64,000 bases of DNA from sequence record NC_048748.1, one strand, 5' to 3'. Below are positions 10,812 to 52,857 of the stretch, piece after piece (positions within the stretch are counted from its first letter, which is position 1; the number at the start of each line of letters is the position of its first letter). The translations under genes were made by a program, and so were the position numbers. This stretch comes from Escherichia phage vB_EcoS_HdH2. The notes beneath the pieces are model-generated. The model was not told the DNA's origin and did not search any database. It saw only the letters and a program-made list of their open reading frames with translations.

Positions 10812-11525
10812 TTATTCCTCCTTCTTGGATTTGAGTTTGATACCTAAGGATGCGAAGTAGATATAAGTTGCTAAATAGGAAGCAGTGGATCCTGTATCAC
10901 CGTAATCCATAGTTCCACGAGCTGCTCTAGTATACTCAGGAGCATAGTTTAATATCGTGTAACTTGGCATTCCTAGCGACTTACATAGCTCTTTAAATGT
11001 ATCCTCGTACTTATGGCACATGAAATGCACAGCGTTTTCTAGGGGCGTTAACTCTAGATCTTTATGGAGAGCTACAGTCAAACTCGCTAGCATTGTGCCA
11101 ATCCCACGATAAACTTCATCTTTAACTAGAGTAGGTTTCTCTTTTTCTAGTGGTGGAAGATGTGCATACTTACCATGTTTAAAAGGAATAAGATCTTCGC
11201 TAGCTAATGCTTCTTTAAATGATGCTTCCTTAAATCTTGGGAGATCTTCATCAATTAGAATATGAATAGCATTGGAAGAGAAACCTTTTGCTTCAGGATC
11301 TAAAGCCTTTAACGCTTTATTTACTTCCACATATGAACCTGACCAAACAACTTGTTTTGCATCCCGATCATACTTGATCTTTCCTTTATCCCACTTTGCA
11401 GGATAATGATCTCCTAAAAACATTACTGCATATTTTTCTTCATCAGTTAGCTGGGAAAGGCTCTTTTGTGTAGCACCACGTGCTAACTGGATAAGACGTT
11501 TTAATTTTTCAGCTTCTTTAATCAT
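10812..11525 (-). CDS. hypothetical protein
   Basis: 237-aa ORF; first gene after the repeat field. Confidence 0.5.
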   Translation of the reverse strand: MIKEAEKLKRLIQLARGATQKSLSQLTDEEKYAVMFLGDHYPAKWDKGKIKYDRDAKQVVWSGSYVEVNKALKALDPEAKGFSSNAIHILIDEDLPRFKEASFKEALASEDLIPFKHGKYAHLPPLEKEKPTLVKDEVYRGIGTMLASLTVALHKDLELTPLENAVHFMCHKYEDTFKELCKSLGMPSYTILNYAPEYTRAARGTMDYGDTGSTASYLATYIYFASLGIKLKSKKEE

Positions 11526-11869
11526 ATATCAGACGCTTGCTCCCCTGTTTCTTTCTTTTCTGGCTTAGGTTTTCTTGCAACCTCTGCAAAGGTTCCTTTA
11601 GTTCTTTCTTTAGCTGGAAGATCTACTTTATACCACAGGATTCCTAATTGTTGCGCTAAATGAGCTATATTCTTTGGTGTTATACTTGGAATATCTTCCC
11701 TATCAGAGATATTAGAGATTACACCAAGTAACTCTCCTATTTTAGGCTTATTAGTATTTATAAGAACATACTCTAATGTTTCTATTTCTACATTTTCATC
11801 CTTATAGTAGAGGCTAAGAGTAATTAAATTTTCCCCAGCAGGGGCTATTTTTGTTTTACCAAATATCAT
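11522..11869 (-). CDS. hypothetical protein
   Basis: 115 aa; overlapping stop/start with neighbours. Confidence 0.45.
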   Translation of the reverse strand: MIFGKTKIAPAGENLITLSLYYKDENVEIETLEYVLINTNKPKIGELLGVISNISDREDIPSITPKNIAHLAQQLGILWYKVDLPAKERTKGTFAEVARKPKPEKKETGEQASDI

Positions 11870-12474
11870 TAATTACCTCTTTTATCTTCATTAATAGCAG
11901 CTCCCAACGCCTCCATAATAGCATCCTCTAAACTTCCATGTTTACCAGGATTATTAAAATGAATAGTACAAACAGAACTCCTAGAAACTCCAGCATCCGC
12001 AGGTGCTACGCTTTTCATGTCAGATTCAAAAGCTTCTTGAGTATGTTTCAACTGTGCAGAAGGTCCATAATCTTCACCAACTCGATAGGACTGATTAGAC
12101 GACAGTGTACCACCACATGGAACATTGTGCAAATCCGACGTTATTTTAGGATTATTATTTAATAGTGCAATACCACTTTTTGACCATGGATCACTAACAG
12201 TGGTACTGGGGCGGTTCACCTCAGTCTTCACGAGTTTATAGCCAGCATCTATTAATGCGTTAATAAGGTTATCCGCTGGGATGCGAGCCGTGCCAAAAAT
12301 CTCACGAGCGTTGTTGAGCCTACCTTCAAAACCTTTACATGCTCTAATATTAGTGTGTGCAAAGGTTAGCTTCATAGATTTGAATTGTACAGTAGCAGTT
12401 AAATCTTTAAAGCTATAATCCCATGTATTCAGTTCATGGTCTGGTACTACTTGAATAGATTGTTGTGTAAACAT
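11869..12474 (-). CDS. hypothetical protein
   Basis: 201 aa; contains one TGTGCAAATCCGAC copy. Confidence 0.5.
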   Translation of the reverse strand: MFTQQSIQVVPDHELNTWDYSFKDLTATVQFKSMKLTFAHTNIRACKGFEGRLNNAREIFGTARIPADNLINALIDAGYKLVKTEVNRPSTTVSDPWSKSGIALLNNNPKITSDLHNVPCGGTLSSNQSYRVGEDYGPSAQLKHTQEAFESDMKSVAPADAGVSRSSVCTIHFNNPGKHGSLEDAIMEALGAAINEDKRGN

Positions 12475-12659
12475 TATTTATTCTCCAGTTTGTCTAACAG
12501 TTTATGGGCTGCTAGATTATATTGTTTGAGTTCACGATTAAGGATTTGGTTTTCACACTTTAGCTCTAGATTCTTATTATTAAGAATATTGCAGATCAGT
12601 AGAAGTGCTAATATAACTAGCAAGGAACCTACTAGCATTAAAAGAAAAAGAGTTTCCAT
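12474..12659 (-). CDS. small membrane protein
   Basis: 61 aa; N-terminal transmembrane segment then coiled-coil-like tail. Confidence 0.4.
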   Translation of the reverse strand: METLFLLMLVGSLLVILALLLICNILNNKNLELKCENQILNRELKQYNLAAHKLLDKLENK

Positions 12660-13201
12660 TATTTTATCTCCATTCTTAGCTTTGAAAACTTATTATACCA
12701 AACTATATGATTATCGTCAATTACAAATTTATGGTAACATGCTGGTACGGTATAAGTCCCATAATCCGTGACACGCTGCACAACCTTGTGTGCACACAGT
12801 CGACATCCATGACCTTCTAAATGAGATCTAGCAGTTTGCCAGTAATAACCATCGTGATCTGGGCAGTAGATCTCGACTTGCTGCTGCATTGTTTTATAAT
12901 TTACACGCTCATACCCAAAGAAAGCCCCGTGAGCTGCAATGGCTTTCTTGATAAATATAAGGTTTAGCGCTTCTTGCTGGAAGTCGGGATGTAGTTGCTT
13001 AATTTTAGTTCTATTAATAGACCCATCCGATTTTACGAATCTATTTATTGGAAAGTTGTTAGCTTCCTCGATTAATAATTCATTTACTTTTTCTCTCATA
13101 CTAAATAGTCTCACAGCTAAGGTGGAAACATTCGTAAGCATCTCCAGTAAACTCTTTATCTTGTAGTATACACTTAGCCTGGTCTTCCAGTACTCCAACA
13201 T
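12659..13201 (-). CDS. hypothetical protein with Cys/His cluster
   Basis: CPDHDGYYW...HGCRLCAHK; true start probably internal (MREKV) because of overlap with 13101-13304. Confidence 0.4.
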   Translation of the reverse strand: MLEYWKTRLSVYYKIKSLLEMLTNVSTLAVRLFSMREKVNELLIEEANNFPINRFVKSDGSINRTKIKQLHPDFQQEALNLIFIKKAIAAHGAFFGYERVNYKTMQQQVEIYCPDHDGYYWQTARSHLEGHGCRLCAHKVVQRVTDYGTYTVPACYHKFVIDDNHIVWYNKFSKLRMEIK

Positions 13202-13304
13202 CTAATAATTGTTGTTTACTTGGCTTTTCAGCGAATACTTTTACAAAATACTCGCCATCCTGATTATACTCATTTATATCTCTAGTAAGGACATATACTT
13301 GCAT
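13101..13304 (-). CDS. hypothetical protein
   Basis: 67 aa. Confidence 0.35.
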   Translation of the reverse strand: MQVYVLTRDINEYNQDGEYFVKVFAEKPSKQQLLDVGVLEDQAKCILQDKEFTGDAYECFHLSCETI

Positions 13305-13326
13305 TTGAAGTTCCTTGAAAACATAA

Positions 13327-13358
13327 AAGGCCAGAACAACTAAGTCCTGGCCTCCTAA
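13327..13358 (-). terminator. Rho-independent terminator (minus strand)
   Basis: ggccaggacttagttgttctggcc hairpin then T-run on the minus strand. Confidence 0.55.
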
Positions 13359-13360
13359 AA

Positions 13361-13798
13361 TTAATGAAGTTGTTTACCACTTCTTAACATAGTGGCCGTT
13401 TCCATAAGACCTAGCGTAGCATCACGCTTATTGATCTGTTTACCAAGTTCATCAGTACGTTTACTGATGTAAGCATTAATAGCCATATTCATAGCTGTAG
13501 CGAGATCTTCTTTGGTTATCTCTTCATCGTCTAAAGCTAATTTAGCCAAAGAATCAAATGTGCTAGAGAGTCCTATAAGATCTGAGGTTTCTCCAGCCAA
13601 AATAGGATTAATATTATCTACTGTTACTTCTAGCATGGAGTTGACAATATCTTCACCGTCTATTAGACCAGTTTCAATATTACTCTCCCACTCCTTCATC
13701 TGCTCCAATAATGGATTTTTCTTTTCTGTCATGGTAGAGGTTTCCTGTGTCAGTCGGTAAGAAGGATGATTGCGTTTTAGGTGGATGTTGTTTAGCAA
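13361..13798 (-). CDS. hypothetical acidic protein
   Basis: 145 aa; start probably at MTEKK. Confidence 0.4.
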   Translation of the reverse strand: MLNNIHLKRNHPSYRLTQETSTMTEKKNPLLEQMKEWESNIETGLIDGEDIVNSMLEVTVDNINPILAGETSDLIGLSSTFDSLAKLALDDEEITKEDLATAMNMAINAYISKRTDELGKQINKRDATLGLMETATMLRSGKQLH

Positions 13799-14141
13799 TC
13801 CAGTTAAGAATCAGCACGCGACTAGGAACAATATCGGTATTATACCAAAAATCGTGAACCCATTGACGAGCATCTTCAAACTTACCAAATTTATATGCTT
13901 TCTTAAACAATTCAAATCCAAAACAATCTGGTGTAAAGTCTACTTCGCGATATTGAATTACTTTAGAACCAGTTAGGTCTTGGATCGCTGCATTAATTTC
14001 TGTATGTGAGAATTTTGTTTCATGAAACTTATTAAAGAATCGGTAGTTGAAGCGTCCGTTCGTTTCGACAAACAACTGGATGAAAAGATCGTTAAATTGG
14101 TTATCAAACCAGTAATTCTGTAGTTGTTGTAGTGCTGTCAT
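13680..14141 (-). CDS. hypothetical protein
   Basis: 153 aa. Confidence 0.45.
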   Translation of the reverse strand: MTALQQLQNYWFDNQFNDLFIQLFVETNGRFNYRFFNKFHETKFSHTEINAAIQDLTGSKVIQYREVDFTPDCFGFELFKKAYKFGKFEDARQWVHDFWYNTDIVPSRVLILNWIAKQHPPKTQSSFLPTDTGNLYHDRKEKSIIGADEGVGE

Positions 14142-14338
14142 TTACGAACCCCGTTAATCGCCATAATGATGCCTTCATACATAAAAGGAAGTAACCCAGA
14201 AGTATAGAATATATTTTCTGTTATTCCTAGATGTCGAAAAAGTATATTAAATAATGCTGTTAGAAATACAATCTGAGGCAGTAATATAAAATACTCAGTT
14301 ACAATCTTTGGTGCCTGATAAACAAGACGTTTTACCAT
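14138..14338 (-). CDS. small membrane protein
   Basis: 66 aa hydrophobic. Confidence 0.4.
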   Translation of the reverse strand: MVKRLVYQAPKIVTEYFILLPQIVFLTALFNILFRHLGITENIFYTSGLLPFMYEGIIMAINGVRK

Positions 14339-14437
14339 TGTTTTTAAGTCTCCTTATTACTTTGGCCTGCTCCACAATAATGAAAACTGCGAGCACTAAT
14401 AGTGCTATTAGTCCCGCAGTAACTGGTACTAGATCAA

Positions 14438-14827
14438 TCATGGGAGACGCCATACATAATTAGCTGTCTGTAGAACTTCAGAAACATCATCATGTTGCAT
14501 CACTACAGACGTTGGAGAGTAACTATCCGCCAGTTCTGTACGAACCATCTCACGTTCTTCTCCGGTATTGATATTTTTAACAATCACTTTCATATTAAGG
14601 GGCGTTAATACAGAAAGTGGTTTCCAAGAGTCCTCAATTTCAATCCCTACCTTTTTCTCAATTAACAAGAGAACTTCTAGTGTGTCATCTGGAATACTAA
14701 TATTATTATTTACAAACTGTAACAACTCATGCAAAGTATTTAATTCGTTAAAATTAAGTTTCATCTTTAATAATATCCTCAACCATATCACAAGACTGTT
14801 GCAATTCGTCAGCAATGCGCTTAACAT
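14438..14827 (-). CDS. hypothetical protein
   Basis: 129 aa. Confidence 0.4.
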   Translation of the reverse strand: MLSALLTNCNSLVIWLRILLKMKLNFNELNTLHELLQFVNNNISIPDDTLEVLLLIEKKVGIEIEDSWKPLSVLTPLNMKVIVKNINTGEEREMVRTELADSYSPTSVVMQHDDVSEVLQTANYVWRLP

Positions 14828-15440: not shown

Positions 15441-15737
15441 TTATTTCTTACCTTTCAGTTGCTTAACTTCACGTTCAAAAGATGCTGCACGACGTTCTGC
15501 CACTGCTTGATGCTCCTTAGCAAAGCGTGCCTCTTGTTTTGCTAAGTTAAAGGCCATGGCGTTCTTGTTAAGAGAATCATACATCTTCTTCATCGCCGGA
15601 ATAGACATTTTCATCAGTTGCCCCTCAAATCCTTGCATGTCGAGGAGAATTGCTAATACATTGGCCATTTCAGTCTTGGTAAGGTTAGAGGCGTCGAAGT
15701 CTTTAGTCATGTTTTCCATTAGAATTTCCTCTCTCAT
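15441..15737 (-). CDS. hypothetical protein
   Basis: 98 aa. Confidence 0.4.
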   Translation of the reverse strand: MREEILMENMTKDFDASNLTKTEMANVLAILLDMQGFEGQLMKMSIPAMKKMYDSLNKNAMAFNLAKQEARFAKEHQAVAERRAASFEREVKQLKGKK

Positions 15738-15797
15738 TAATTTATGAACTTATTATACAGAATTTTAAGGCTTAAAGCAACTGAATTTTTTAATTAC

Positions 15798-16229: not shown

Positions 16230-16269
16230 TTTGTTTCCTTCTCATCAATTTATAAAGTAATTATACAGA

Positions 16270-16298
16270 AACTTAGGCATTTTAGCAAATAAAACTTT
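16270..16298 (-). promoter_or_regulatory. Early promoter (minus strand; -35 TTGCTA, 17-bp spacer, -10 TATAAT)
   Basis: Reverse complement of attata ... tagcaa; one member of a reiterated family. Confidence 0.55.
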
Positions 16299-16387
16299 TA
16301 ATTAAATGCCTAGTCCTGTACCAATAGCAATACAAATGATTATAAGTATTGCTACTGCTTGTATGATTCGTTTAATAATAGCAATGA

Positions 16388-18008: not shown

Positions 18009-18066
18009 TTAATCCTCCTATCAATCTATATAAATATTATACCAAAATTTTTAGCAAAAAGCAAGT

Positions 18067-18097
18067 AAAATAAAAGCCTGATCAGCTAAGATCAGGC
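18067..18097 (-). terminator. Rho-independent terminator (minus strand)
   Basis: agcctgatc...gatcaggct hairpin plus T-run. Confidence 0.55.
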
Positions 18098-18402: not shown

Positions 18403-18409
18403 TCCTATT

Positions 18410-18949
18410 TTACTTGTTAAGCTCTTCTAAATCTGGTATATATCCAAGAAACTCCTCAATTAAAGCGTACTCCCCAGCAATCTCCTGTCTAGACTTATTC
18501 GCTAAGTCTACTGCCAGAGCTAAGTCTTCATAATTGAAGGTTCCTTTCATACGTTTTCGGCCTGTTTCATCCGTAATTTGAACTCTCCATTTCTGCCTAT
18601 CTTTAGCCCACATAACATTTGCATATCCGGATTTGGACTTTTTATGCTTTTTATTACGACAATTTTGTGGTTTAGATGCAGAACGTAAATTTTTCCATCG
18701 GTTATTTTGTGGATTTCTATCTATATGATCCACAAATTCAGGTATATATCCTTCCATATATAGGAAGGCCCATCTATGGGCTCCCTGCCTCTCCCCTTCC
18801 ACCATTATCATTATGTAATCATTGTTGTACAGGGTTCCAGCTTCCATTCCCCTCTTTACATACTGATTATTACCATCTATCTTCCAGGTAAATATCCCGG
18901 TTTCTGGATTATAGTCCAGAAATTCCTTTAATCTTTCTTGTGTTATCAC
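18410..18949 (-). CDS. HNH homing endonuclease with AP2-like domain
   Basis: HIDRNPQNNRWKNLR HNH motif plus C-terminal AP2-like segment. Confidence 0.65.
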   Translation of the reverse strand: MITQERLKEFLDYNPETGIFTWKIDGNNQYVKRGMEAGTLYNNDYIMIMVEGERQGAHRWAFLYMEGYIPEFVDHIDRNPQNNRWKNLRSASKPQNCRNKKHKKSKSGYANVMWAKDRQKWRVQITDETGRKRMKGTFNYEDLALAVDLANKSRQEIAGEYALIEEFLGYIPDLEELNK

Positions 18950-19374
18950 AATTTATTAATGGCCTCTAAGAAGTTTTTCATAGTTTTTACGGTTGCGGTG
19001 CTCAGATCAAGATTTACACCCAAACACTCGGTTAATGCTTCCTGATAAGGAGCCTTTAATCTGCCTTCTGGGACTTCTACCTTTTTATATTCTTTATTTT
19101 TGACCTTTTTAATCATAGTCTCTAGTACAAGAAGTGGTAATTTAGCACCTTCAATATCAGTACCCAAAAGTTCAGTTAAAATTTTATTAAGATCAAGACG
19201 AGTTAACTTTTTGCCCTTAGACATAGATGCACCTACCTTTGTATCAATAGATTTTTCCGCTTTCTTTTCGAGCTTTTTGTACTCAGGAGAGTCATGATCA
19301 CGGAGTGCAATGTTTAGCTCGTAATGTGGTATACGAAAATGTTCCGCCATTTGAGTATAGAAACGATCAGACAT
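18946..19374 (-). CDS. hypothetical protein
   Basis: 142 aa. Confidence 0.45.
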   Translation of the reverse strand: MSDRFYTQMAEHFRIPHYELNIALRDHDSPEYKKLEKKAEKSIDTKVGASMSKGKKLTRLDLNKILTELLGTDIEGAKLPLLVLETMIKKVKNKEYKKVEVPEGRLKAPYQEALTECLGVNLDLSTATVKTMKNFLEAINKL

Positions 19375-19449
19375 AATATATACCTCTCTTAACTAATTTA
19401 TGTATATATTATATAATAACTAGGGCTAAAAGTCAACTACTTTTTTATC

Positions 19450-19866
19450 TTAATCTACTGCATGGATAAATCTTTTCCTAACTAGATACATAGTTATTGG
19501 GTAAATTGAGTACATAAGTATCGGGGAGAAAAGGGTGAAATATGCTGTAACTCCCCCAGCTAACATCAAAGGTATTAATGCTAGAGTAAGGGCCATAAGA
19601 ATCATGCCGAATGAAACAGCCAAAGCTATGGATATAGGATTCTCTAGTTCCATCCATAACCAACAATATTTCGTATCTCTATGGCAATTGCATTTACAAA
19701 CGCCGAATGAACCCATAATTATATACTCTAGTCCGTGAATAACCTTTATTAATAAGCTATTTCGGGTAGTTAATGCAAGGATAGTAAAGACTATCATTAA
19801 AACGAATACTACTAGACTTATTTTCCAGATACCTAGCAGCATCATAGTGAATAGTTCTGCAAACAT
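19450..19866 (-). CDS. integral membrane protein
   Basis: 138 aa, multiple hydrophobic helices. Confidence 0.45.
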   Translation of the reverse strand: MFAELFTMMLLGIWKISLVVFVLMIVFTILALTTRNSLLIKVIHGLEYIIMGSFGVCKCNCHRDTKYCWLWMELENPISIALAVSFGMILMALTLALIPLMLAGGVTAYFTLFSPILMYSIYPITMYLVRKRFIHAVD

Positions 19867-23919: not shown

Positions 23920-24002
23920 ATTTAATCCTCTTGCCTCAATCTATAAACATATTATACAAAAGTTTGGGCATCTAAGCAACTAAAATTTTATTATAAAAAT
24001 AG

Positions 24003-24073: not shown

Positions 24074-24454
24074 TCATGTAATATTAGTTTCTCTAGCTTT
24101 GCGTAGTACCCCTGCATTTCTCCATAACTTAATATCGTCTACTGTTTCTTTATAAGGAGCTATGGTAAAACCTAGTGGGCCAGCACTAAATAGCCCTAAG
24201 AATCCTATTGCACGCATATAGAATAAGCATTCTTCGCCTGTCATTTCTTCAACTGCTTTTCTTTGTTTTTCGTTTTCAAACTCGTGCTCCTTGTTGTCTA
24301 TACGAAGGTGTTTAATGAACCATTCAGCAGAATATTCATCTAAGTGTCTAAGTATAGCTACTGCATACCCAGTGCCAATTAAAAACCAAGTGGTAACAAG
24401 AATTAGTACTATAGTCATATAATCTCCGGTTAAGGTCAGCGACCAACTCACCAC
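24074..24454 (-). CDS. membrane protein
   Basis: 126 aa with hydrophobic segments. Confidence 0.4.
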   Translation of the reverse strand: MVSWSLTLTGDYMTIVLILVTTWFLIGTGYAVAILRHLDEYSAEWFIKHLRIDNKEHEFENEKQRKAVEEMTGEECLFYMRAIGFLGLFSAGPLGFTIAPYKETVDDIKLWRNAGVLRKARETNIT

Positions 24455-24528
24455 TTACCGCACTAAGGGGCACGACTCCCTTATCCGTAACAGTTGCAGG
24501 TGACGCAACTCGGTCCTACGCGAGTTCT

Positions 24529-26045: not shown

Positions 26046-26121
26046 TTCAAACCTCTCTCATCAATTTATAAATATATTATAGCAAGAAAAGAGAGGTTTA
26101 GCAAATGAATTATTTCAGAAT

Positions 26122-26590: not shown

Positions 26591-26905
26591 TCACAGATCG
26601 GGGCGTTCATCTTCGAAACAGCCTGAGCTAATTCCTTCTCCGAATCCTACAAAGCCATCAAATTCATCATTTGAAATATCCGTAATCATTGCTTCCATTT
26701 TCCTAATTTCCGAGGTTTTCATCCCTGCTTTACTATTCTTAAAGTGTTTGCGAGGATTCCCACACATCCAACAAGAACAGATACAAGGAGTAGTAGTGAT
26801 AATACCTAACCGTTTAGGGCTTTCTTCATGTGGGAAGACTGTCCAGTATTTCTTGCGGTTGTTCTTCACACGTTGCCGGTGATGACGTCTTAATGCTCGA
26901 TCCAC
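26591..26905 (-). CDS. Cys-rich hypothetical protein
   Basis: 104 aa; CICSCWMC motif. Confidence 0.4.
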   Translation of the reverse strand: MDRALRRHHRQRVKNNRKKYWTVFPHEESPKRLGIITTTPCICSCWMCGNPRKHFKNSKAGMKTSEIRKMEAMITDISNDEFDGFVGFGEGISSGCFEDERPDL

Positions 26906-27632: not shown

Positions 27633-27938
27633 TCACACACTGTCTAAGTAAGAAGTATAATGGAATTTAGTTTCTCCAGTCTTATCTACTTCTACCTCAG
27701 TTCGTGGTACTTGACGCACTATACCATGAATCATCTTATAGCGAATGCCTTTAGCTGGTTCATGATCTTTTGGAAATACTTGTTTAACCGTTACTACTTT
27801 ATACTCTTCACGCGGGGTTAGCACAACTACTTGATCACCTTCTTTGATTTTCCAAGAAGATGGAAATTCATAGGTATATCTTTGGCCACTAGTTTGGAAT
27901 ACTACAGAAAGATAACGTTTCATTTGGTTTCCTCTCAT
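27633..27938 (-). CDS. hypothetical protein
   Basis: 101 aa. Confidence 0.45.
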   Translation of the reverse strand: MRGNQMKRYLSVVFQTSGQRYTYEFPSSWKIKEGDQVVVLTPREEYKVVTVKQVFPKDHEPAKGIRYKMIHGIVRQVPRTEVEVDKTGETKFHYTSYLDSV

Positions 27939-27996
27939 TAATTTATATAAATATTATAGCAATAAATAAGAGAGAAAGCAAATGAATTTTTAAATT

Positions 27997-28071
27997 TGGT
28001 GCTCCCACCAGGAATCGAACCCGGTTCCACGGTTTACAAGACCGTTGCATCGCCAGCAATGCTTTAAGAGC
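27997..28071 (-). tRNA. tRNA-Thr (anticodon TGT)
   Basis: GGTTCGATTCC T-loop, CCA encoded, loop CTTGTAA. Confidence 0.55.
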
Positions 28072-30441: not shown

Positions 30442-30700
30442 CAAATTCTTTAGTTTACTAAGGCTATTAGCTCGGCGTAACTACAGCACCTTCGCTTCGA
30501 GCGGAAGGAACCGCGTCATCTCGCAAACCCGATACACTATTCAGTTGCCATGAATCTAGTGGACTAATCTAGAACTTCTCCCAAATCGTAGGGATCGTGC
30601 TTTTTGGCAGCCAGTCCTAGGTCGAGCTAATACCTTAGTGAACTATGATGAGGATTTCTCCCCATCAATTTATATAAATATTATAACAAGAAATTAAGCA

Positions 30701-31060
30701 TTAAGCAAGTACATTTTTGCAGATTTCTTGTAGTTCCTTTACATCACGAACGTAAAGATAGTCTGAACTTCCAGAGTGCATACTTTGCATAAACACACCC
30801 TCATCTGGCGCAGTATCCTTCAAAGTAATTCCTAACCAGAACTCGGCAAAACTAGGTGTTATCTCACCTTGACTTGCCTTGAATACATCGGCTTCTGTGA
30901 TCTCCTGACCAGTAGAAAGTCCCATATACGGTACGTTCAGATCAATATCTTTGTAGAATTCAGCTAGGTCTTGTTCGAAGTCCCAACCTTTAGAGATAGC
31001 GAACTCTATTGTTACATGACCGAAATAGCCTTGAACCTTGCTTGATAATTGCATTTGCAA
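30701..31060 (-). CDS. hypothetical protein
   Basis: 119 aa. Confidence 0.45.
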   Translation of the reverse strand: MQMQLSSKVQGYFGHVTIEFAISKGWDFEQDLAEFYKDIDLNVPYMGLSTGQEITEADVFKASQGEITPSFAEFWLGITLKDTAPDEGVFMQSMHSGSSDYLYVRDVKELQEICKNVLA

Positions 31061-32049: not shown

Positions 32050-32258
32050 TTAATTTTTGTTAACTCACTTTATAAAATATATTATACAGATAATTAAGCA
32101 TAATAGCAAATGAATTTTTAATAAATTTACTTATTGTGTAGGCCACCTGGAGGCTACCAACCCCACGGCTGACAAAGAAGTTTGCGAGACTTCTCTTAAA
32201 AGCCAGAATAGACCCGCCGATCTATCGGAACCTACATAATAAGTAAACTTTATAGTGT

Positions 32259-33559: not shown

Positions 33560-33628
33560 GTTTATCTTGTTCTGTTATGTTGCTTCTCCAGTTCAATTTA
33601 TGTAATTATTATACAGAACTTTCGGAAA

Positions 33629-33901
33629 CTAAGCAACTACATTTTTTAAGAATTTGATGCCTTTCTTTTTCTTCTTATATTTCCACGTTAATGGATTCTG
33701 TCGATTATGAACGCTTGAGATCTTCGTCTCGTCAAAGTTCTTCAATATCATGTAATCACAAGATAATTGTTCTAGTGGAATGTGATCACCGTCAAAAGCA
33801 TATACATAAGGCTGTTGACTAGCACGATAATGATAGACTTTATTAATTCTACGTTTCAGCGACTTATCCGCGCAGTAAATAAAGAAGTTTTCAGGATGCA
33901 T
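33629..33901 (-). CDS. hypothetical protein
   Basis: 90 aa. Confidence 0.4.
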   Translation of the reverse strand: MHPENFFIYCADKSLKRRINKVYHYRASQQPYVYAFDGDHIPLEQLSCDYMILKNFDETKISSVHNRQNPLTWKYKKKKKGIKFLKNVVA

Positions 33902-34259: not shown

Positions 34260-34387
34260 ATATTTAAAAGTATTCAAATACTAGTTTAAACACTTTTAAA
34301 TATGTTTCCGAATTAGATAACTATTATACCAAGTTTTAAGGCACTGAGCAAGTCAAATTTTAAAGAACTTGCTCAGTGCTGTATTAG

Positions 34388-34663: not shown

Positions 34664-34753
34664 TCGTTAACTCCTTCATCAATTTATACAACTATTATAT
34701 CAGAAATTTAAAGCAAAAGGCAAGTACATTTTTAAAAATTCTGTTTGGAGGAG

Positions 34754-35428: not shown

Positions 35429-35506
35429 TGGTGGCTCCCCGAGGATTCGAACCTACGTACCTTCCGGTTATGAGCCGGGTGCTCATACCATATGAGCTTG
35501 AGAACC
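35429..35506 (-). tRNA. tRNA-like with CAT anticodon; T stem has a bulge
   Basis: Acceptor GGTTCTC/GGGAGCC pairs with G-U; loop CTCATAA. Confidence 0.35.
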
Positions 35507-35512: not shown

Positions 35513-35601
35513 TGGCGGAAGAAGTGGGAATCGAACCCACAAGGCTATATTTCAAACCGACAGATTAGCAATCTGCTGCAATACCGTTATGCTATTCTTC
35601 C
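35513..35601 (-). tRNA. tRNA-Ser (anticodon GCT), type II
   Basis: 89 nt, perfect acceptor GGAAGAA/TTCTTCC, loop TTGCTAA. Confidence 0.5.
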
Positions 35602-35621
35602 GAATTTATAAATATATTATA

Positions 35622-36191
35622 TTAGAAATTTAACTTCATAGCAAGAAAATTTTTCAAGTTTTCGGTAGACATCTCATCCACATCTATAGGAGAAACAAAC
35701 CCATTTAATTGTCTAGCAAACTTTTCGCCAGCAGGATCATTATCCCCAACAGCTACCAATTTAAAAGGTAGTAATTTCAATTGCTTTAACAACGCTTTTC
35801 CGGGGGAAGAACCCAACATTGCTAGGGCAGGATAACCAGCGTTATGTAACGCAACTGCCTTAAATACAGATTCAGCAATCAATACTACTTTTTCATCTCC
35901 ATTGAGAGTTTCTAGTCCCCATACACACTGTGTAGTAGAATAAGTAAAATATTTAGCCTCAAAGGGACACTTACCATGACCTTTTGGAGCAGAAGGATTA
36001 TAAGTCTGATAGCCTCTCAACATCCCAGAGAAGTCATACAATGGGACTGTTAGCCAGCCTTCTGGGCTTAACCAGCAATGATATTTATCTGTATCAAACC
36101 CTCTAGATAAGAGATGTTCTGTTAGTTCATCAACAGTCATATTAGATTCCTCTCTCAAATTTATAAATATATTATACAGAGAATTTAGCAT
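35622..36191 (-). CDS. hypothetical protein, possible Toprim-like fold
   Basis: LIAESVFKAVAL ... VAVGDNDPAGEKFA resembles E...DxD Toprim signature; weak. Confidence 0.4.
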   Translation of the reverse strand: MLNSLYNIFINLREESNMTVDELTEHLLSRGFDTDKYHCWLSPEGWLTVPLYDFSGMLRGYQTYNPSAPKGHGKCPFEAKYFTYSTTQCVWGLETLNGDEKVVLIAESVFKAVALHNAGYPALAMLGSSPGKALLKQLKLLPFKLVAVGDNDPAGEKFARQLNGFVSPIDVDEMSTENLKNFLAMKLNF

Positions 36192-36315
36192 TCAAGCAAT
36201 TGAATTTTTTAACTTTTTAGAGGAAAATCATAGGATGCTTAAGGGTAGCAGATAAGTGGTGAGTACCGAAATTTGTGACCCCACTAAAAATCTGGGGGCA
36301 ATTTTTAAAGACCCC

Positions 36316-36344
36316 TTGACATTTTCGCCGGGGTAGTGTAAAGT
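36316..36344 (+). promoter_or_regulatory. sigma70-type promoter (TTGACA-17-TAAAGT, TG-extended)
   Basis: Consensus -35; precedes the plus-strand three-gene cassette. Confidence 0.5.
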
Positions 36345-36406
36345 ATATGTTATGGATGAGTGATCAAAGAGACACACATTTTCTATATACTAGGAGGTGT
36401 CAAAAA

Positions 36407-37396
36407 ATGACAGAAGAAGTAGCTAAGAGTCCTGAAACCGTCGCTAGCGTAGCAGCAGAACTGCATCGTCACGAGGAATCAGATAAGAAAAAGTGGGAGA
36501 AAGTCAAAGCCTACGAAGAAGAACATCGTGAACACGATGATAAAGATGAAGAAGATGACGATGATGAACATTGTCATAAATATGGAAAACATAAAATGCA
36601 AGAACCAGTAAACGTATTTACTAACGGCTTCCCTGGCATGGGTGCATTCCCAGCTAACGCAAGTGCTTTCGGTGGAGAAGGTATGGGCCTATTCGGAGCT
36701 ATCCTAATCGGTGCTCTATTAACAGGCGGATTTGGTGGTTTCGGTGGATTCGGTGGACGTGGTGTAGTTAGTGATGGTACCGCAGTTGATGCAGTACTTC
36801 AGAACCAAGATACCGCTAGTATTCTAGCAGCTATTAACACTACTCGTACAGAAGCTAATCAGGGTACTGGAGCTGTTTTAAGCGCAGTTAACAATGGTTT
36901 TAGCCAGACATCCCAAAACCAGAGCCGTGATACTCAGTCTGTACTAACTACGATCTATGGTACAGGTGCTAATCTGTCTAATCAGATCTGCCAGGAAACT
37001 CGCAACGTTATTCAGGGTCAGTTCGATCTTTCTCGCCAGATTGATCAATCTTTCGCAGCTAACCAGATAGCTCGTGCACAAGATAAGTTTGATTCTGCAC
37101 AGATCGCTTTCCAGCAGACTTTACAAACTAATAACCAGTTTGCCGCTGTTCAGGCTCAGATGTGTGCTAACCAGAACTCTCTGGAACGTCAGATCGCTGA
37201 ATGTTGCTGTGAACTTCAGACTGCGATCGCTGGTGTAACTACTGCGCGTATCCAGGATGAGTTAGACGCATGTCGCCTACGTGAAGCAATCGCTGCGGGT
37301 AGCGGTGCTAACGGTCAGGTAATTAATCAAATCGCTTTAAGTCTTGGTGCTATCACTCAGACTCTGGCTGGTCTGCAGGCTAAACTGCCGGCTTAA
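36407..37396 (+). CDS. membrane protein: acidic His-rich N-terminus, Gly-zipper TM segment, Q/N/T/A-rich C-terminal domain
   Basis: ORF 36347-37396 trimmed to MTEEV after aggagg RBS; GLFGAILIGALLTGGFGGFGGFGG segment. Confidence 0.5.
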   Translation: MTEEVAKSPETVASVAAELHRHEESDKKKWEKVKAYEEEHREHDDKDEEDDDDEHCHKYGKHKMQEPVNVFTNGFPGMGAFPANASAFGGEGMGLFGAILIGALLTGGFGGFGGFGGRGVVSDGTAVDAVLQNQDTASILAAINTTRTEANQGTGAVLSAVNNGFSQTSQNQSRDTQSVLTTIYGTGANLSNQICQETRNVIQGQFDLSRQIDQSFAANQIARAQDKFDSAQIAFQQTLQTNNQFAAVQAQMCANQNSLERQIAECCCELQTAIAGVTTARIQDELDACRLREAIAAGSGANGQVINQIALSLGAITQTLAGLQAKLPA

Positions 37397-37417
37397 TATT
37401 AAGGGGAGGAGCCCATT

Positions 37418-46684: not shown

Positions 46685-47524
46685 TTAGGAAGACATTTTA
46701 GCTTTAAGAGCTGGGTGAGGATCATACCCTTCCAAATGGAATGACCAAGCTGCCGTATTATTTTCTAGCAAGTCGTAAAGATCTACAAACTCTGGCATTA
46801 CTAGAGTTGGCAGAGGGCGTGGCTTGCGTTTTACCTGTTCTTCTACCTGTTCCATGTGGTCATTATAGATATGAGTATCCCCGCCACTAAAGATAAGATA
46901 ACGAGGTTTTAATCCTGTCAGTTTTGCTAATATATGCGTTAATAAAGCATAACTAGCAATATTGAAAGGTAAACCGAGGAAACAATCCACAGAGCGTTGT
47001 GTCCATTTAAGATCTAGGTATCCATCGTTACTTACATAGCACTGGAAGCCGTAGTGACAAGGTGGTAATGCCATTTTATCAAGTTCAGCTACGTTCCACG
47101 CAGAAACTAGATGTCTGCGGCCATGAGGATTATTCTTGAGTCCTTCAATAAGTTCTAGAATCTGATCTCGCCCACCAAAGTTACGCCACTGTTTACCATA
47201 TACTGGTCCTAGATTACCCTTATCATACCCCATACTTATAGCTTGGTCTTCATAATTTGGAGTCCAGATGGTCCACTGTCCTTCGTCACGACCAAATGTG
47301 AATACACGTAGATCATGAAGATTTGTGGAACCAGACAAGAACCATAAGAGTTCTCCTACTACGGATTTCCAAGCTAGACGTTTGGTAGTGACGGCAGGAA
47401 ACCCATCACGTAGATCGAATTTAGCGTAAGAATCAAAAATTGAAACTGTGCCTGTTCCTGTACGGTCATTACGGGGTTCACCTAGTAAAATTACATCTGT
47501 CAAAATTTTTAAGTATTGTTGCAT
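46685..47524 (-). CDS. thyA: Thymidylate synthase
   Basis: RNDRTGTGT, FPAVTTKR, ELLWFLSG, PPCH signatures. Confidence 0.85.
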   Translation of the reverse strand: MQQYLKILTDVILLGEPRNDRTGTGTVSIFDSYAKFDLRDGFPAVTTKRLAWKSVVGELLWFLSGSTNLHDLRVFTFGRDEGQWTIWTPNYEDQAISMGYDKGNLGPVYGKQWRNFGGRDQILELIEGLKNNPHGRRHLVSAWNVAELDKMALPPCHYGFQCYVSNDGYLDLKWTQRSVDCFLGLPFNIASYALLTHILAKLTGLKPRYLIFSGGDTHIYNDHMEQVEEQVKRKPRPLPTLVMPEFVDLYDLLENNTAAWSFHLEGYDPHPALKAKMSS

Positions 47525-48057: not shown

Positions 48058-49199
48058 AAGAAATCTCCAAATTCATTACCCAGATCTTTCAGAGTATCAG
48101 TAGAGGTCTCAGTTACCTGACCTACACGGTAGGCTGCACCAATCTGGATTTCTTGCGGAGCAGGCTGTAGAGAAGTAGTATCCAACCAGTTCATGATCCA
48201 CGGAATAGGGTTTTTGGTGATTACCGGCAGATTACTTGGCCATTCTACACCGATGTGCATAAATGCATTACGCCCCACAAAGTACAAGTATTCTTCTAGA
48301 AGTTCTGCATTCAAACCGATTAGACTACGACCTTTGAAGATGAAATGACCCCATTCAATTTCAGTTTTCAGAGTTTTCAGGAGCTGTGCTGGTGCTTTAG
48401 CCACTGCTTCATCTACCAGATCTTTGTCAAACTGCTGGAACATAATCTGGATGATTGCTTTAGACATCTGGGTGTGCAGAGCCTCATCTTTAGCGATTAA
48501 TTGCAGGTTCTTAGCAATACCTTGCAGAATATCGTTCTCTGCTAGAGCAAAAGTACATGCAAAGGATGCGTAGAACTGCATTGCTTCCAGACCGTAGATT
48601 GCAAAATAAGCATCTAACAGTTTAGCCTGAGTTTCACGCTTAACTTCAGGGAACTCAGTTTCTGGATATGTATTGTCACCACGATGATCACGTACTGCGA
48701 TGAAATACTGACCTAACTGGTACAGTTCATCGAACAGTTCAACAGAATCTGCGATACGTGCAAATGCTTCTTGGTTTTTAGTTACAGAATCAATAAATTC
48801 TGCTGGATCAGTCAGCACATTACGAATAATATTGCTATAGGCACGACTATGCAGGTCTTCGAAGTAGCTCCACTGCTTTAGCATACCTTCCAATTCTGGA
48901 CGACTTACAAGTGGCATAATAGCTGCTTCAGGCGCTCGACTGATAAAGGAATCAGTTTGAGTCTGCCATGCTAAATTCAGAAGTGTAATTTCCTGAATTT
49001 CACGTGGGAGGTTAGGCCATTGTTTCTTATCGGCTTCTAAACTGATTTCTGTCTCAGTCCAAAATTGAGAGCGTTGCAGAAGTGCCAGACGTTCTAGTTC
49101 TGGATGTGCTACACGTACATAATCTGCGATACCTAGAGAATCGCCCAGGAAAAGATCAGCGTTAGTATGATCCCAATTCAGGTTTAGTAAAGTAGTCAT
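48054..49199 (-). CDS. nrdB: Ribonucleotide reductase small subunit (class Ia beta)
   Basis: 381 aa ferritin-like; adjacent to nrdA. Confidence 0.8.
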   Translation of the reverse strand: MTTLLNLNWDHTNADLFLGDSLGIADYVRVAHPELERLALLQRSQFWTETEISLEADKKQWPNLPREIQEITLLNLAWQTQTDSFISRAPEAAIMPLVSRPELEGMLKQWSYFEDLHSRAYSNIIRNVLTDPAEFIDSVTKNQEAFARIADSVELFDELYQLGQYFIAVRDHRGDNTYPETEFPEVKRETQAKLLDAYFAIYGLEAMQFYASFACTFALAENDILQGIAKNLQLIAKDEALHTQMSKAIIQIMFQQFDKDLVDEAVAKAPAQLLKTLKTEIEWGHFIFKGRSLIGLNAELLEEYLYFVGRNAFMHIGVEWPSNLPVITKNPIPWIMNWLDTTSLQPAPQEIQIGAAYRVGQVTETSTDTLKDLGNEFGDFL

Positions 49200-49306
49200 T
49201 GATTTTCCTCTTTCTCACTATTTCAGGAATATTATAGCAAATCAGGTAGCGATTAGCAAGTAAAATTTCAAAGAAAAAGGAGACCCGAAGATCTCCTTGT
49301 CTTTTA

Positions 49307-51637
49307 TTACAACTGGCAACCACCAGAAGCACAACCCGCTGCTTCTTCACCCGCTCCTCCACCATTCGCAGTGTTGAAGTTTGCGTAGTACCAAGTCTTC
49401 CAACCATATTTAACAGCAGTCATGAAATCACGAACTACTACTGGGCCAGGAATGATTTCATTCTCAAACTTGGTGTAGTCGTAGTACATATTAGTACTGA
49501 TAGACTGGCTGAAGAATTTCTGCATAGTTGCTACCCATTTGATCCATTCAATACGATCCACATCATAAGCCAGTTTATAGCTCATTAAAGTTTCCCAATC
49601 AGTTGCACCTGGGGCAATTGCAATTACTTTATTCACTGCACTACCCTTGATAGATACAATCTTACGAGGTGGTTCAATAGAGTTAGTAACGCCTAACAGA
49701 ACAGAAGAACTTTCTCCCGGCATCTGCGCAGTCAGAACAGAGTTACGCATACCGTACTTCAGAATATCTGCACGCAGAGACTCCCAATCCATTTCTAGAC
49801 CTACTGATACCAGTTCATCAACAGTTTTCTTGTACGTGTCGATTACTAGTATTCCTTTAGATGGTTTAGTACGATCGAACCACTCACATGCACCTTGCTC
49901 TTTGGCTAGACGTACAGAGGCTTTATGCAGGAAGTAAGACAGTTTTTCAGCTTCACGATGGATCCAGTTACGTGCTTCAACGCCTTCATAAGCCAGACCT
50001 TCTGCTGCCATTGCACCTGCTGCGTTCATAAGGCCAATACCAACGTTACGACGTTTCTTAGCTGTATATTCCATAGTTGGGAACGGATAGTCCTGAATTT
50101 CAATGATGGTATCAACGAATTTCAGAAGAATATAGCAAGTCTTTTCCCACTCAGCCAGAGATTCCATGCGTCCTAGTACAACACCACCTAAGTTACACAG
50201 AGATACTTCACCAATATCCTCCGGCTTCATTTGATCAAGTTGTTCTTTTGTTTTATACAGTTCCGTGATATGATGGAACGGACGTGTAGGCTGAGTAATT
50301 TCAACACAAAGGTTTGTCATACGGATCGGATCAAGGAAGTTACCGTGACGATTAGATTCCCCGATGTGGTGAGCATACATACGTCCTGTTTCCATTCGGA
50401 TACGTAGCCAAGTATCTAGGATTTCTTTTGCAGAGACTTTAGGAGCTGCTGGAACTGTTTTTCCTTCGTGGTCGATCTTTGTAAGAGATGCCACACGTTT
50501 CTCCGCTGCCACATAGATTTTTTCAAATTTAGCCTCGTCATCACTATAAAACGCTTCATGAACTTCTGGGGCATAGAAGTATGACATTAGCGTAATATCT
50601 TCATTTTTCAGATAACGTTTTAACAAAAGATTGTTGAAGCTCAGAGAATAATCCATCTTATCGATTTTATTCTCATCTGTAGCACGTTGTTGCTTAACCT
50701 GCATCAACTGAATGATTTCAGGGTCAAAGTAAGGATAAGACACTGTAGCAGAACCACCACGAGTTTGCTGAGTATTGGCCTTTACTGAGCGGTCAATGTG
50801 TCGATAATATGGCAGTTTTCCGGAATGCGGGAATGCCCCATTTCGCACCGGATCAGCAATTGATCGGCTTTCAAGATGATACCCGATTCCCGCTCTGGCT
50901 GCGACCATTTTGAAGACGATGTGCTCGGCTGTGTCGATTGAATCCAATGTGTCAGTGGAATCAACGAGGCAACAACTAGCAAATCCACGGTCACTAGAGC
51001 GCAAGCCAACCAATGGCGGCGTAGGAACGTTGATTTTGTGGAGCGACATTGCATTGTAGAGATCGATTGCATCTAGAATTGTCCAGTTAGGTTGAGATAG
51101 CATCGCCATTGCCATACCCATGTAGGCAAACTGCGGGGTTTCGTAAATTTCGCCAGTTGCGATATTACGACGGGAATACTTATCAAAGAATTGTTTCAAT
51201 CCTCCGCTAGTGAAAAGACGGTCGCGATCATGGTCGATAACCTGATTCAGAGCTTCAAATTGCTCATCGGTAATCCATGCACTCATGTCTTCCCATGCAC
51301 CTACACTAACCATATGATCGTGGAAAAAGCGTAGAGAAGGTGGTTCGAAGGAATCATAAAGGCGTTTACGCATCTGCGCAAGACGTAATTCCTTTGCTGG
51401 CACGTCGTATGCTGGATTATCTTTGATAAGACTTTCAGCAGCTTTAATTAAAGCATCCATCAGAGTGTCGGAATCTACAACCCCTTTAGGCAGAGTTTTT
51501 TGAGCAGCCATAGTAATGGCTGACCAACTTACATCAACTGTTTTGCAACCATACTCTGCCCAACCATTGAGTTTTTCAGGAGCAAAGTCTTCTACAGTAC
51601 CGTCACGTTTAATTACTTTTTCGATGCGATGGCTCAT
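49307..51637 (-). CDS. nrdA: Ribonucleotide reductase large subunit (class Ia alpha)
   Basis: ATP-cone VIKRDGTVEDF at N-terminus; C-terminal Cys pair; ORF trimmed to MSHRIEK start. Confidence 0.85.
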   Translation of the reverse strand: MSHRIEKVIKRDGTVEDFAPEKLNGWAEYGCKTVDVSWSAITMAAQKTLPKGVVDSDTLMDALIKAAESLIKDNPAYDVPAKELRLAQMRKRLYDSFEPPSLRFFHDHMVSVGAWEDMSAWITDEQFEALNQVIDHDRDRLFTSGGLKQFFDKYSRRNIATGEIYETPQFAYMGMAMAMLSQPNWTILDAIDLYNAMSLHKINVPTPPLVGLRSSDRGFASCCLVDSTDTLDSIDTAEHIVFKMVAARAGIGYHLESRSIADPVRNGAFPHSGKLPYYRHIDRSVKANTQQTRGGSATVSYPYFDPEIIQLMQVKQQRATDENKIDKMDYSLSFNNLLLKRYLKNEDITLMSYFYAPEVHEAFYSDDEAKFEKIYVAAEKRVASLTKIDHEGKTVPAAPKVSAKEILDTWLRIRMETGRMYAHHIGESNRHGNFLDPIRMTNLCVEITQPTRPFHHITELYKTKEQLDQMKPEDIGEVSLCNLGGVVLGRMESLAEWEKTCYILLKFVDTIIEIQDYPFPTMEYTAKKRRNVGIGLMNAAGAMAAEGLAYEGVEARNWIHREAEKLSYFLHKASVRLAKEQGACEWFDRTKPSKGILVIDTYKKTVDELVSVGLEMDWESLRADILKYGMRNSVLTAQMPGESSSVLLGVTNSIEPPRKIVSIKGSAVNKVIAIAPGATDWETLMSYKLAYDVDRIEWIKWVATMQKFFSQSISTNMYYDYTKFENEIIPGPVVVRDFMTAVKYGWKTWYYANFNTANGGGAGEEAAGCASGGCQL

Positions 51638-51779
51638 TTGGCTTTCCTTTTTATAGTTATCAGGATTTAAGGAATATTCTACTTTATTATTGGTCATTAG
51701 GCAAATAAAATTTTCTGATAGAAAAGGCCCGAGTATTTTCATACCCAGGCCCTGTATATTACCAGTCTAGCTTTTTAGC

Positions 51780-52070
51780 TTATTCAATTACTTTAGCTCT
51801 AGCTACTTCTTTTAATAGAATATCTATGGAGGTGCTCAGCTCGTTATAATTGAATGGTTTATTTGGATTTGAGGTTACAATTTTCCACGCTAGGGTTGTC
51901 TTAGGACTTTCTTCCCCTTCCTTACGTGTAATCATATTAGCAGCACTCAGTGAAGTACGATGTATTTTAGTTTTACGGCTCAGATGAACGACGTTTTCCA
52001 TATTACACCTTCCCCATGTCTTTAAAAATATCATAGAATGCTTTAGACTCAACAGAACGAACGTTATCAA
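51780..52070 (-). CDS. hypothetical protein
   Basis: 96-aa ORF; start probably internal (MENVV). Confidence 0.35.
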   Translation of the reverse strand: MITFVLLSLKHSMIFLKTWGRCNMENVVHLSRKTKIHRTSLSAANMITRKEGEESPKTTLAWKIVTSNPNKPFNYNELSTSIDILLKEVARAKVIE

Positions 52071-52764
52071 TCAATTCGATCATTGAGAATGGAGCATTTT
52101 CATATTTCTCATAAACTTCCATAAGAAGTGCTAGACCTGAGTCACCTTTAATGTCTTTCTGAGCTATATCCCCGCAGATAATTAAACGGCAGTCTTGTCC
52201 TACACGAGTTAGGAGACAAACCATTGCCTCAACGGAAATATTCTGAGCTTCATCGACAATTACATAGGAGTTGTTGAAAGTTCTGCCACGAGCATGTTCT
52301 ATAGCCAAAAATTTAATTTTCTGACGTTCGACATATCCCTTATAGGCATGATCACCGATGGCCCATTTCATACCATCAGCTATTGGCTCTAACCAAGGCT
52401 CTAGCTTTTCTGCTAGATCACCAGGAAGCATACCAAGAGACTTACCTAGAGGTTCATTAGGACGTACGAGGATCACTTGCTCAATATCTGAGTGAATGTC
52501 TATGAGTTCCTGAGCTGCAAGAACAGACGGGATAAAGGTTTTACCAGTACCTGGCTCACCAATACCCACAGTCACTGTGTTGTTCTTGATCATATTGATA
52601 TATGATTTTTGCTCGCGGTTTTTACCTACTAGGGATTTAGCAACTGGGTTAGCGTAATCATTAGAAAAATCAGCCTGAATTACGTTATTCTCATATTTGT
52701 TGCCACGCTTTCTTGAACCATTGCGGTTCTCTCTTTTTTGACGTGCTTTTCCCATAAATAACAC
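52003..52764 (-). CDS. phoH: PhoH-like ATPase
   Basis: Walker A GEPGTGKTF and PhoH-family core. Confidence 0.8.
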   Translation of the reverse strand: MLFMGKARQKRENRNGSRKRGNKYENNVIQADFSNDYANPVAKSLVGKNREQKSYINMIKNNTVTVGIGEPGTGKTFIPSVLAAQELIDIHSDIEQVILVRPNEPLGKSLGMLPGDLAEKLEPWLEPIADGMKWAIGDHAYKGYVERQKIKFLAIEHARGRTFNNSYVIVDEAQNISVEAMVCLLTRVGQDCRLIICGDIAQKDIKGDSGLALLMEVYEKYENAPFSMIELIDNVRSVESKAFYDIFKDMGKV

Positions 52765-52828
52765 TCCTATAGTGTACTTCGCTAACAGAGGATCAACAAA
52801 AAGATCTTGTTTATCAACTTACAAATAT

Positions 52829-52857
52829 ATTATACCAATATGTACAGTAAAAAGCAA
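52829..52857 (-). promoter_or_regulatory. Early promoter (minus strand) upstream of phoH
   Basis: Reverse complement of attata-17-aagcaa gives TTGCTT-17-TATAAT. Confidence 0.55.

Follow-up and report, generated by a model that had tools for sequence, protein, structure and literature searches.

The genome of Escherichia phage vB_EcoS_HdH2 (sequence record NC_048748.1) carries, within a 64,000-nucleotide stretch that was analysed in full and is referred to here as the window, many copies of a short unit with the form TTGCTW-N17-TATAAT; the question raised by this locus is what these copies are, what their conserved parts may do, and how they organize the small genes around them. It is almost certain from the comparisons described below that the sites are early-class sigma-70 promoters of a T5-like phage, near-consensus for the host RNA polymerase and built on one template; judged by sequence, the motif is real, functional by orthology, and already known and annotated in T5. 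Knowledge of the T5 early promoters dates back to the 1980s, and PN25 has become a standard promoter in the laboratory; the copies therefore reveal nothing new about promoter workings. The value of the analysis lies in a map of early transcription with ~31 promoters and ~26 short minus-strand operons, which annotation pipelines mostly omit, and in a conserved start block that bears on how T5, which has no sigma factor of its own, replaces early with late transcription.

The window derives from a T5-like phage (Tequintavirus): megablast of two large stretches matches hundreds of T5-like phages from Escherichia, Salmonella, and Klebsiella, with 95-97% identity for the best; the replication-origin-binding protein is 99.8% identical to its counterpart in phage vB_EcoS_FFH_1, and the gene layout agrees with that of T5. 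A pre-early block occupies approximately the first 10 kb; it is followed by a minus-strand block (~10.8-52.8 kb) of small open reading frames (ORFs) and 24 tRNA genes, and by a plus-strand block of replication genes that starts at 53 kb. A preliminary description of the window had taken the motif as a marker of the phage lineage, and this is borne out by a search of IMG/VR, where the extended pattern is almost confined to viral contigs of 104-128 kb (more than 114 stretches matched, nearly all on contigs of that size).

There are 23 exact copies of TTGCTW-N17-TATAAT in the window, of which 20 lie on the minus strand (15752-52857) and three on the plus strand (55122, 61877, and 62905), against an average of 0.15 and a maximum of 1 in 100 dinucleotide-preserving shuffles; the earlier statement that more than 20 regions share the motif thus holds. 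With a single mismatch permitted in the -35 hexamer there are 25 sites, which align to the consensus tAAAAAtTtA / TTGCTw / ...AAattTctg / TATAAT / AtaTTc / ATAAATTgatGAGAgg. The plus-strand string quoted in the preliminary description (ttataaatatattatacag ... ttagcaa ... aattttt) is the reverse complement of this consensus; four of its example sites (40032-40060, 52829-52857, 55122-55150, and 61877-61905) are exact, and the fifth, placed at 16270-16298, is off by 10, the true core being 16260-16288. The consensus holds ~55 bits, ~30 of them outside the two selecting hexamers, and the flank columns took no part in site selection. When each site was left out in turn and scored on the flank (non-hexamer) columns only, 24 of 25 sites reached +7.6 to +46 bits, against a background with a mean of -49.6 bits and a 99.9th percentile of -4.7; the sole exception, 52998 (flank score -42), has the hexamers and the A-tract, lacks the spacer, discriminator, and transcript start of the family, and stands in tandem upstream of 52857. 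The position weight matrix proposed as a check in the preliminary description, built with 66 columns, finds 30 sites above 5 bits, the top score in 20 Markov-random windows being 3.6; the sites added by the matrix are 19436 (TTGACT), 34723 (TTGCCT, 18-bp spacer), 51704 (TTGCCT..TAGAAT), 12720 (TTGACG), and, on the plus strand, 58335 (TTGCAT). Inspection of gaps by eye added one related promoter at 10794-10765, giving a total of ~27 minus-strand and four plus-strand sites (31; Table 1); six further variants depart from the exact pattern by one altered hexamer or by a spacer of 18 bp. All 31 sites are co-directional with their neighbouring genes, and the first 10.7 kb, the pre-early region, is free of sites.

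The sites can be identified by synteny. Each site with 250 bp of flank was mapped onto the T5 record AY543070, which carries 75-bp promoter features across the region, many of them historically named; 25 of the 27 minus-strand sites fall on such features, in agreement with the earlier reading of the copies as sigma-70 promoters of the T5 early type, and plus-strand sites 55122 and 58335, both within the compared T5 stretch, also fall on annotated T5 promoters. The named T5 orthologs are P-F30, P11, P13a, P13b, P14a, P14b, P15a, P15b, P15c, P16-17, P-D/E33, and P-H207. By direct alignment 61877 is P-N25, identical across the promoter and up to the sixteenth transcribed base and differing only by a short indel at the ribosome-binding site, and 62905 is P-N26, matching throughout the promoter. 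The preliminary description had matched both 61877 and 55122 to PN25, which is sound in that 61877 is the ortholog of P-N25 and 55122 a paralog of like design. In phage BF23, 21 orthologous pairs were found.

That the matches arise by chance in an AT-rich genome, or belong to a dispersed repeat without promoter function, is a reading with next to no probability. The genome has a G+C content of 39%, and a loose sigma-70 scan finds as many matches in shuffles as in the real sequence; however, chance is opposed by the number of exact matches over expectation, by leave-one-out flank scores far above background, by strict gene co-orientation and a near-fixed distance to start codons, by orthology to promoters of the T5 annotation, among them PN25, which has been studied experimentally, and by hexamers that are better conserved than their flanks. 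Counts, synteny, gene spacing, and the leave-one-out test together rule this reading out. Reading the copies as early promoters nevertheless has several observations weighing against it. A generic TTGACA/TATAAT sigma-70 scan shows no excess over shuffles in three copy-bearing segments, and the promoter signal in this AT-rich genome therefore needs a model built on this family, of which 52998, 51704, and 12720 are weak members. The conservation of orthologous sites across the window, T5, and BF23 favours the promoter reading, with an identity of 100% for the -10 hexamer, 98.5% for the -35 hexamer, 96% for +1 to +8, and 84-88% for the flanks; these figures are biased upward because the matrix score served to pick the sites of each genome. 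Of the 19 T5 promoters that Gentz and Bujard (1985) had first defined in vitro, 11 were confirmed by primer extension (Klimuk 2020, PMC7472727), and some copies may therefore be inactive in vivo. Early timing would be expected in this phage from the T5 literature and annotation, as would initiation at the predicted +1, which is the seventh base past TATAAT.

The early promoters of the window share an A-tract at ~-45, a spacer that is AT-rich in its downstream half, TATAATA, an ATATTy discriminator, and the transcript start ATAAATTGA. The A-rich block upstream of the -35 hexamer (consensus tAAAAAtTtA) holds ~10 bits across 12 columns, and a run of at least four A at ~-45 to -41 is found in 20 of 25 copies; together with -35 hexamers of TTGCTT or TTGCTA, this agrees with the earlier outline of TTGCTA-17-TATAAT plus an A/T-rich UP element. 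Within the consensus discriminator the first-position A is present in 95-100% of sites and the other positions in 45-100%; the discriminator of PN25 itself is AGATTC. The canonical extended -10 (TGnTATAAT) was considered and is not a defining feature, as it is present in just 8 of 25 sites; a TG directly adjoins the hexamer in 12 of 25.

Downstream of the hexamers the transcript start ATAAATT(T/G)(A)GAG is conserved, with +1 to +7 at 68-86% in protein-first sites and 67-100% in RNA-first sites. The distance from the predicted +1 to the start codon is 18-34 nt (mostly 21-27) at protein-first sites, the only exception being 52857 with a leader of 67 nt. At four sites a tRNA begins 8-57 nt after the predicted +1 (tRNA-Ser starts ~8 nt past that of 35644); non-coding RNA follows +1 for ~230 nt at 30708 and for ~800 nt at 40060, where it corresponds to the T5 'RNAX' and precedes tRNA-Arg. 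Positions +1 to +8 are equally conserved at 6 RNA-first and 22 protein-first promoters, and a purine-rich stretch after +9 is found only ahead of ORFs; therefore +1 to +8 is considered to serve transcription and the rest to be the ribosome-binding site. A translation signal was thus rejected as an explanation for +1 to +8, given the same conservation at tRNA-first and stable-RNA-first promoters, and accepted for +9 to +20 as the ribosome-binding site. An Rfam scan returned tRNAs alone and matched no known RNA family on the copies or in their vicinity.

A function for each block may be proposed by analogy with work on PN25. N25 has been described as TTGctt, a 17-bp spacer, TATAAT, an UP element, and a six-base discriminator, with an AT-rich spacer likened to a second UP element; its on-rate (kon) is 2.9e8 per M per s and its open complex is very stable, and the native start favours escape, the 'anti' start lowering the yield of full-length RNA ~tenfold when polymerase acts alone (Hsu and Han 2025, PMC12464699). 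Each N25 block described there is conserved among the paralogs in the window. By this analogy the upstream A-tract and the hexamers would give very fast and stable polymerase binding, and the AT-rich spacer and native transcript start would ease the exit of polymerase from a tight promoter; with the unit repeated approximately every 1.6 kb, host polymerase would be captured at many points, and the result would be simultaneous expression of ~26 short operons of early genes and tRNAs.

The start block could have a further role, although this is doubtful: the block from the discriminator to ~+9 (ATATTcATAAATTGA) may also be recognized by a phage factor that shuts off or modulates early transcription, with the polymerase-binding gpT5.026 and the DNA-binding D5 as candidates. 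The block is kept in ~28 paralogs and is as conserved at tRNA-first and stable-RNA-first promoters, hence it is no translation signal; an early-specific discriminator has been proposed to lie behind the differential effect of gpT5.026 (PMC7472727). The same block reaches distant relatives. Serratia phage Slocum, whose origin-binding protein is 62% identical, has 16 matrix matches, all co-oriented with genes; Vibrio phage AG74, of a different subfamily and with an origin-binding protein just 45% identical, has ten TTG-N20-TATAAT sites against 0.4 expected, of which nine begin TTGC and most carry TATAAT-a-NNNN-CATAAATTGA, so that the block persists there as CATAAATTGA. D5 homologs are annotated in both phages. 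However, the native N25 start is already accounted for by promoter escape, as seen in the loss of RNA with the 'anti' version (PMC12464699), and the effects of gpT5.026 in vitro are two-fold or smaller (PMC7472727). A class-specific control element at -1 to +9 (CATAAATTGA), through which a conserved phage factor would set the timing of early transcription beyond the tuning of escape, is therefore put forward only as a candidate and a rather unlikely one; such an operator would not be exclusive of promoter function. The first ~nine transcribed bases match the hexamers in strength of conservation, tRNA-first promoters and Vibrio phages included, and, since the same design is found in Slocum and AG74, the promoter template including the first transcribed bases is a family-wide trait of the Demerecviridae; this template was not found stated in the literature accessible to the analysis, and the point is an incremental one.

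The distribution of the promoters bears on how the early genes are transcribed. On an approximate ORF map (longest ORFs with a check for ribosome-binding sites, hand-curated, plus tRNAs) the minus strand has ~101 feature junctions, 62 of which overlap or are <30 bp. Copies occupy 22 of the 36 co-directional minus-strand gaps of at least 50 bp (61%) and 24 of the ~101 junctions overall, which is well short of the copy in nearly every minus-strand gap that had been claimed; gaps free of copies hold terminators (13357, 19900, 21158), stable-RNA sequence, or promoters of other design, the holin gap having only a -10 and the P10a equivalent being tatgTATAAT without a -35. The accompanying claim that most small genes are individually promoter-driven is likewise not supported: ~26 minus-strand promoters serve 79 ORFs and 24 tRNAs, or ~four features per promoter, and only four units from one promoter to the next contain a single gene (51704, 36199, 34723, and 16288). 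The region is therefore organized as many short operons and not with one promoter per gene; promoter 15780, for example, heads a nine-ORF unit.

Terminators stand beside several of these promoters: hairpin 49298-49277 adjoins promoter 49231-49259, terminator 55087-55111 adjoins promoter 55122, and the T-tail of hairpin 18100-18073 extends into the upstream region of promoter 18064. A strict stem-loop (hairpin and T-run at most 75 nt upstream) is nevertheless present at only 4 of 31 sites, with two or three further cases by eye; the terminator is therefore not part of the repeated unit, and a combined terminator-promoter module was rejected. This scarcity also bears on the proposal that the copies are portable regulatory cassettes which promote recombination and gene shuffling among T5-like phages, modelled on the promoter-early stem-loop (PeSL) elements of T4-type phages, for which a precedent exists (Arbiol 2010, PMC2839356). 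Synteny breaks concentrate between +1 and the ribosome-binding site, and break ends lie at most 5 nt from a copy in 9 of 39 cases against T5 and 8 of 30 against BF23 (p ~6e-5 under a genome-wide null); however, a null limited to non-coding DNA leaves no significant excess (p = 0.13 and 0.18). The four junctions inspected have single genes, such as the HNH endonuclease gene hegH, inserted between the promoter and the first gene, with no second flanking copy and no hybrid cassette. The cassette proposal is thus considered distinctly improbable, and the copies were rejected as recombination hot spots since break clustering vanishes against the non-coding null and the junctions are plain gene insertions. 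As an observation in its own right, gene-content differences from T5 and BF23 often start between +1 and the ribosome-binding site (12663-12673, 18013-18020, 46606-46609, 49224-49229, and others), extra genes (hegH in T5) being placed directly after the promoter and ahead of the usual first gene. The individual early promoters are listed in Table 1.

Table 1. Predicted early-type promoters of the window.
Feature	Window coordinates	Strand	Score, basis, and T5 counterpart
Related promoter TTGCAT-18-TATAAT (10794-10765), transcript start ATAGATTAA	10738..10810	-	by eye
Weak variant TTGACG-17-TATAAT (12720-12692)	12665..12736	-	11.5 bits; T5 promoter 13212-13286
Early promoter, core 15752-15780, best consensus match	15725..15796	-	70.6 bits; synteny
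Early promoter, core 16260-16288, P-F30 ortholog	16233..16304	-	matrix; synteny
Early promoter, core 18036-18064	18009..18080	-	matrix; T5 promoter 18550-18624
Variant TTGACT-17-TATAAT (19436-19408), family transcript start	19381..19452	-	27.0 bits; T5 promoter 19368-19442
Early promoter, core 23951-23979, hairpin and T-run ahead	23924..23995	-	matrix; T5 promoter 24443-24517
Early promoter, core 26076-26104	26049..26120	-	matrix; T5 promoter 26722-26796
Early promoter, core 27953-27981, ortholog of AY543070 'P11'	27926..27997	-	matrix; synteny
Early promoter, core 30680-30708, P13b ortholog	30653..30724	-	matrix; synteny
Early promoter, core 32081-32109, P13a ortholog	32054..32125	-	matrix; synteny
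Early promoter, core 33608-33636, P14b ortholog	33581..33652	-	matrix; synteny
Early promoter, core 34323-34351, P14a ortholog, four-tRNA cluster downstream	34296..34367	-	matrix; synteny
Early promoter TTGCCT-18-TATAAT (34723-34694), P15c ortholog	34667..34739	-	18-bp spacer; synteny
Early promoter, core 35616-35644, P15b ortholog	35589..35660	-	matrix; synteny
Early promoter, core 36171-36199, P15a ortholog	36144..36215	-	matrix; synteny
Early promoter, core 40032-40060, P16-17 ortholog	40005..40076	-	69.7 bits; synteny
Early promoter, core 40714-40742, P-D/E33 ortholog	40687..40758	-	66.4 bits; synteny
Early promoter, core 41554-41582	41527..41598	-	matrix; T5 promoter 43067-43141
Early promoter, core 42881-42909	42854..42925	-	64.9 bits; T5 promoter 44393-44467
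Early promoter, core 44749-44777, P-H207 ortholog	44722..44793	-	best T5 local alignment 334 bp, 100% identical
Early promoter, core 45544-45572	45517..45588	-	matrix; T5 promoter 46337-46411
Early promoter, core 46617-46645	46590..46661	-	46.0 bits; T5 promoter 46937-47011
Early promoter, core 49231-49259, ahead of nrdB-frd-thy	49204..49275	-	T5 promoter 50061-50135
Weak variant TTGCCT-17-TAGAAT (51704-51676)	51649..51720	-	15.3 bits; no T5 promoter annotated
Early promoter, core 52829-52857, ahead of phoH-like gene	52802..52873	-	52.8 bits; T5 promoter 53638-53712
Promoter-like TTGCCA-17-TATAAT (52998-52970)	52943..53014	-	5.6 bits; upstream A-tract; T5 promoter 53776-53850
Early promoter, core 55122-55150	55106..55177	+	matrix; T5 promoter 55708-55782
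Early promoter TTGCAT-17-TATAAT (58335-58363)	58319..58390	+	46.8 bits; T5 promoter 58999-59073
P-N25 ortholog, core 61877-61905, ahead of D2 gene	61861..61932	+	direct alignment
P-N26 ortholog, core 62905-62933, ahead of D3 gene	62889..62960	+	direct alignment

Some of the outlying members have particular surroundings. Site 12720 sits within the 3' end of an ORF, with a predicted start 26 nt ahead of ATG 12659. Site 51704 is preceded by a terminator-like hairpin, and ~32 nt separate it from the nrdA ATG 51637 downstream; this weak promoter and the hairpin fall inside both the longest nrdA frame (start 51742) and the T5-annotated nrdA coding sequence (at AY543070 52560-52598). ATG 51637, which has a good ribosome-binding site, is more likely than 51742 to be the nrdA start, and the T5 annotation of nrdA may therefore be ~35 codons too long. 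On the plus strand, 58335 is followed by a 491-nt ORF-free leader (58370-58860) up to the GTG of the replication-origin-binding protein gene, as is also the case in T5.

Promoter 10794, which comes after the last early ORF, heads a structured non-coding unit of 168 nt that has no convincing ORF and ends at a strong terminator (10628-10595); promoter and unit together occupy window 10591-10794 on the minus strand. The 168-nt stretch folds at -63.2 kcal/mol (z = -6.3) and has homologs in ~66 T5-like records, mostly unannotated. A helix of ~20 bp (GGGGCGATGATTATTAC / GTAATTAATCACGCGCCCC) is unchanged across six diverged copies, whereas its interior varies; compensatory change is seen in 3 of 49 predicted pairs, and covariation is uninformative. 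The stretch is a candidate small RNA; alternatively, it may be an inverted repeat with a role at the DNA level, close to where the terminal repeat has its inner end.

Promoters outside the family, and RNA-like or coding features near the copies, were also observed. A perfect consensus sigma-70 promoter, TTGACA-17-TATAAT without the flanks of the early family, lies at 53050-53078 (plus strand) before nrdD and diverges from minus-strand promoters 52998 and 52857. The nrdD gene (53108-55079, plus strand), encoding an anaerobic ribonucleotide reductase, reads as two adjacent ORFs of 440 aa and 215 aa (stop 54428-54430, ATG 54432); ~240 bp (54286-54525) do not align with T5, and Rfam found no intron in this non-aligning stretch. 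A plus-strand island of 3-4 ORFs (36316-38193) is set within the minus-strand block; its promoter at 36316-36344 is TTGACA-17-TAAAGT, the equivalent of T5 P12, and it is closed by a strong terminator hairpin (38109-38139), the equivalent of which is annotated in T5 as an efficient bidirectional terminator. Two tRNA-like matches from Rfam were not reported by ARAGORN, both on the minus strand: 35432-35506 (40.3 bits), at the position of T5 tRNA-Ile2, and 39722-39793 (35.5 bits), within the ~800-nt non-coding stretch after promoter 40060, for which the T5 annotation gives a stable 'RNAX' of unknown function.

Compared with known systems, the repeated unit resembles the PeSL of T4-type phages (PMC2839356) in that an early promoter unit is reiterated between small early genes and gene-content differences tend to adjoin the units; it differs in having no regular stem-loop, no duplicated or hybrid copies at indel junctions, and no excess of breaks beyond that of non-coding DNA. 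A strong sigma-70 promoter with an UP element is also known in rrnB P1; the A-tract at ~-45 to -41 fits the proximal UP subsite of such promoters, however only this proximal half is conserved here, and the UP role is putative. In BF23 (OR083247.1; PMC10644984) early promoters are predicted in homologous gaps, often beside predicted terminators; these features come from a general sigma-70 predictor and comparison with T5 and are not experimental. The closest system is T5 itself. All T5 early promoters identified so far share the discriminator ATATT (PMC7472727), with which the consensus discriminator of the window agrees. Weak site 51704, before nrdA, has no annotated counterpart in T5, and the stretch around related promoter 10794 has no alignment to T5. 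The window belongs to a different isolate, ~83-100% identical around each site, and otherwise nothing substantive differs: the template, syntenic positions, and orientation are the same as those of the T5 early promoters PN25, PN26, PH207, PF30, PD/E33, and P11-P16 (Gentz and Bujard 1985, as cited in Klimuk 2020).

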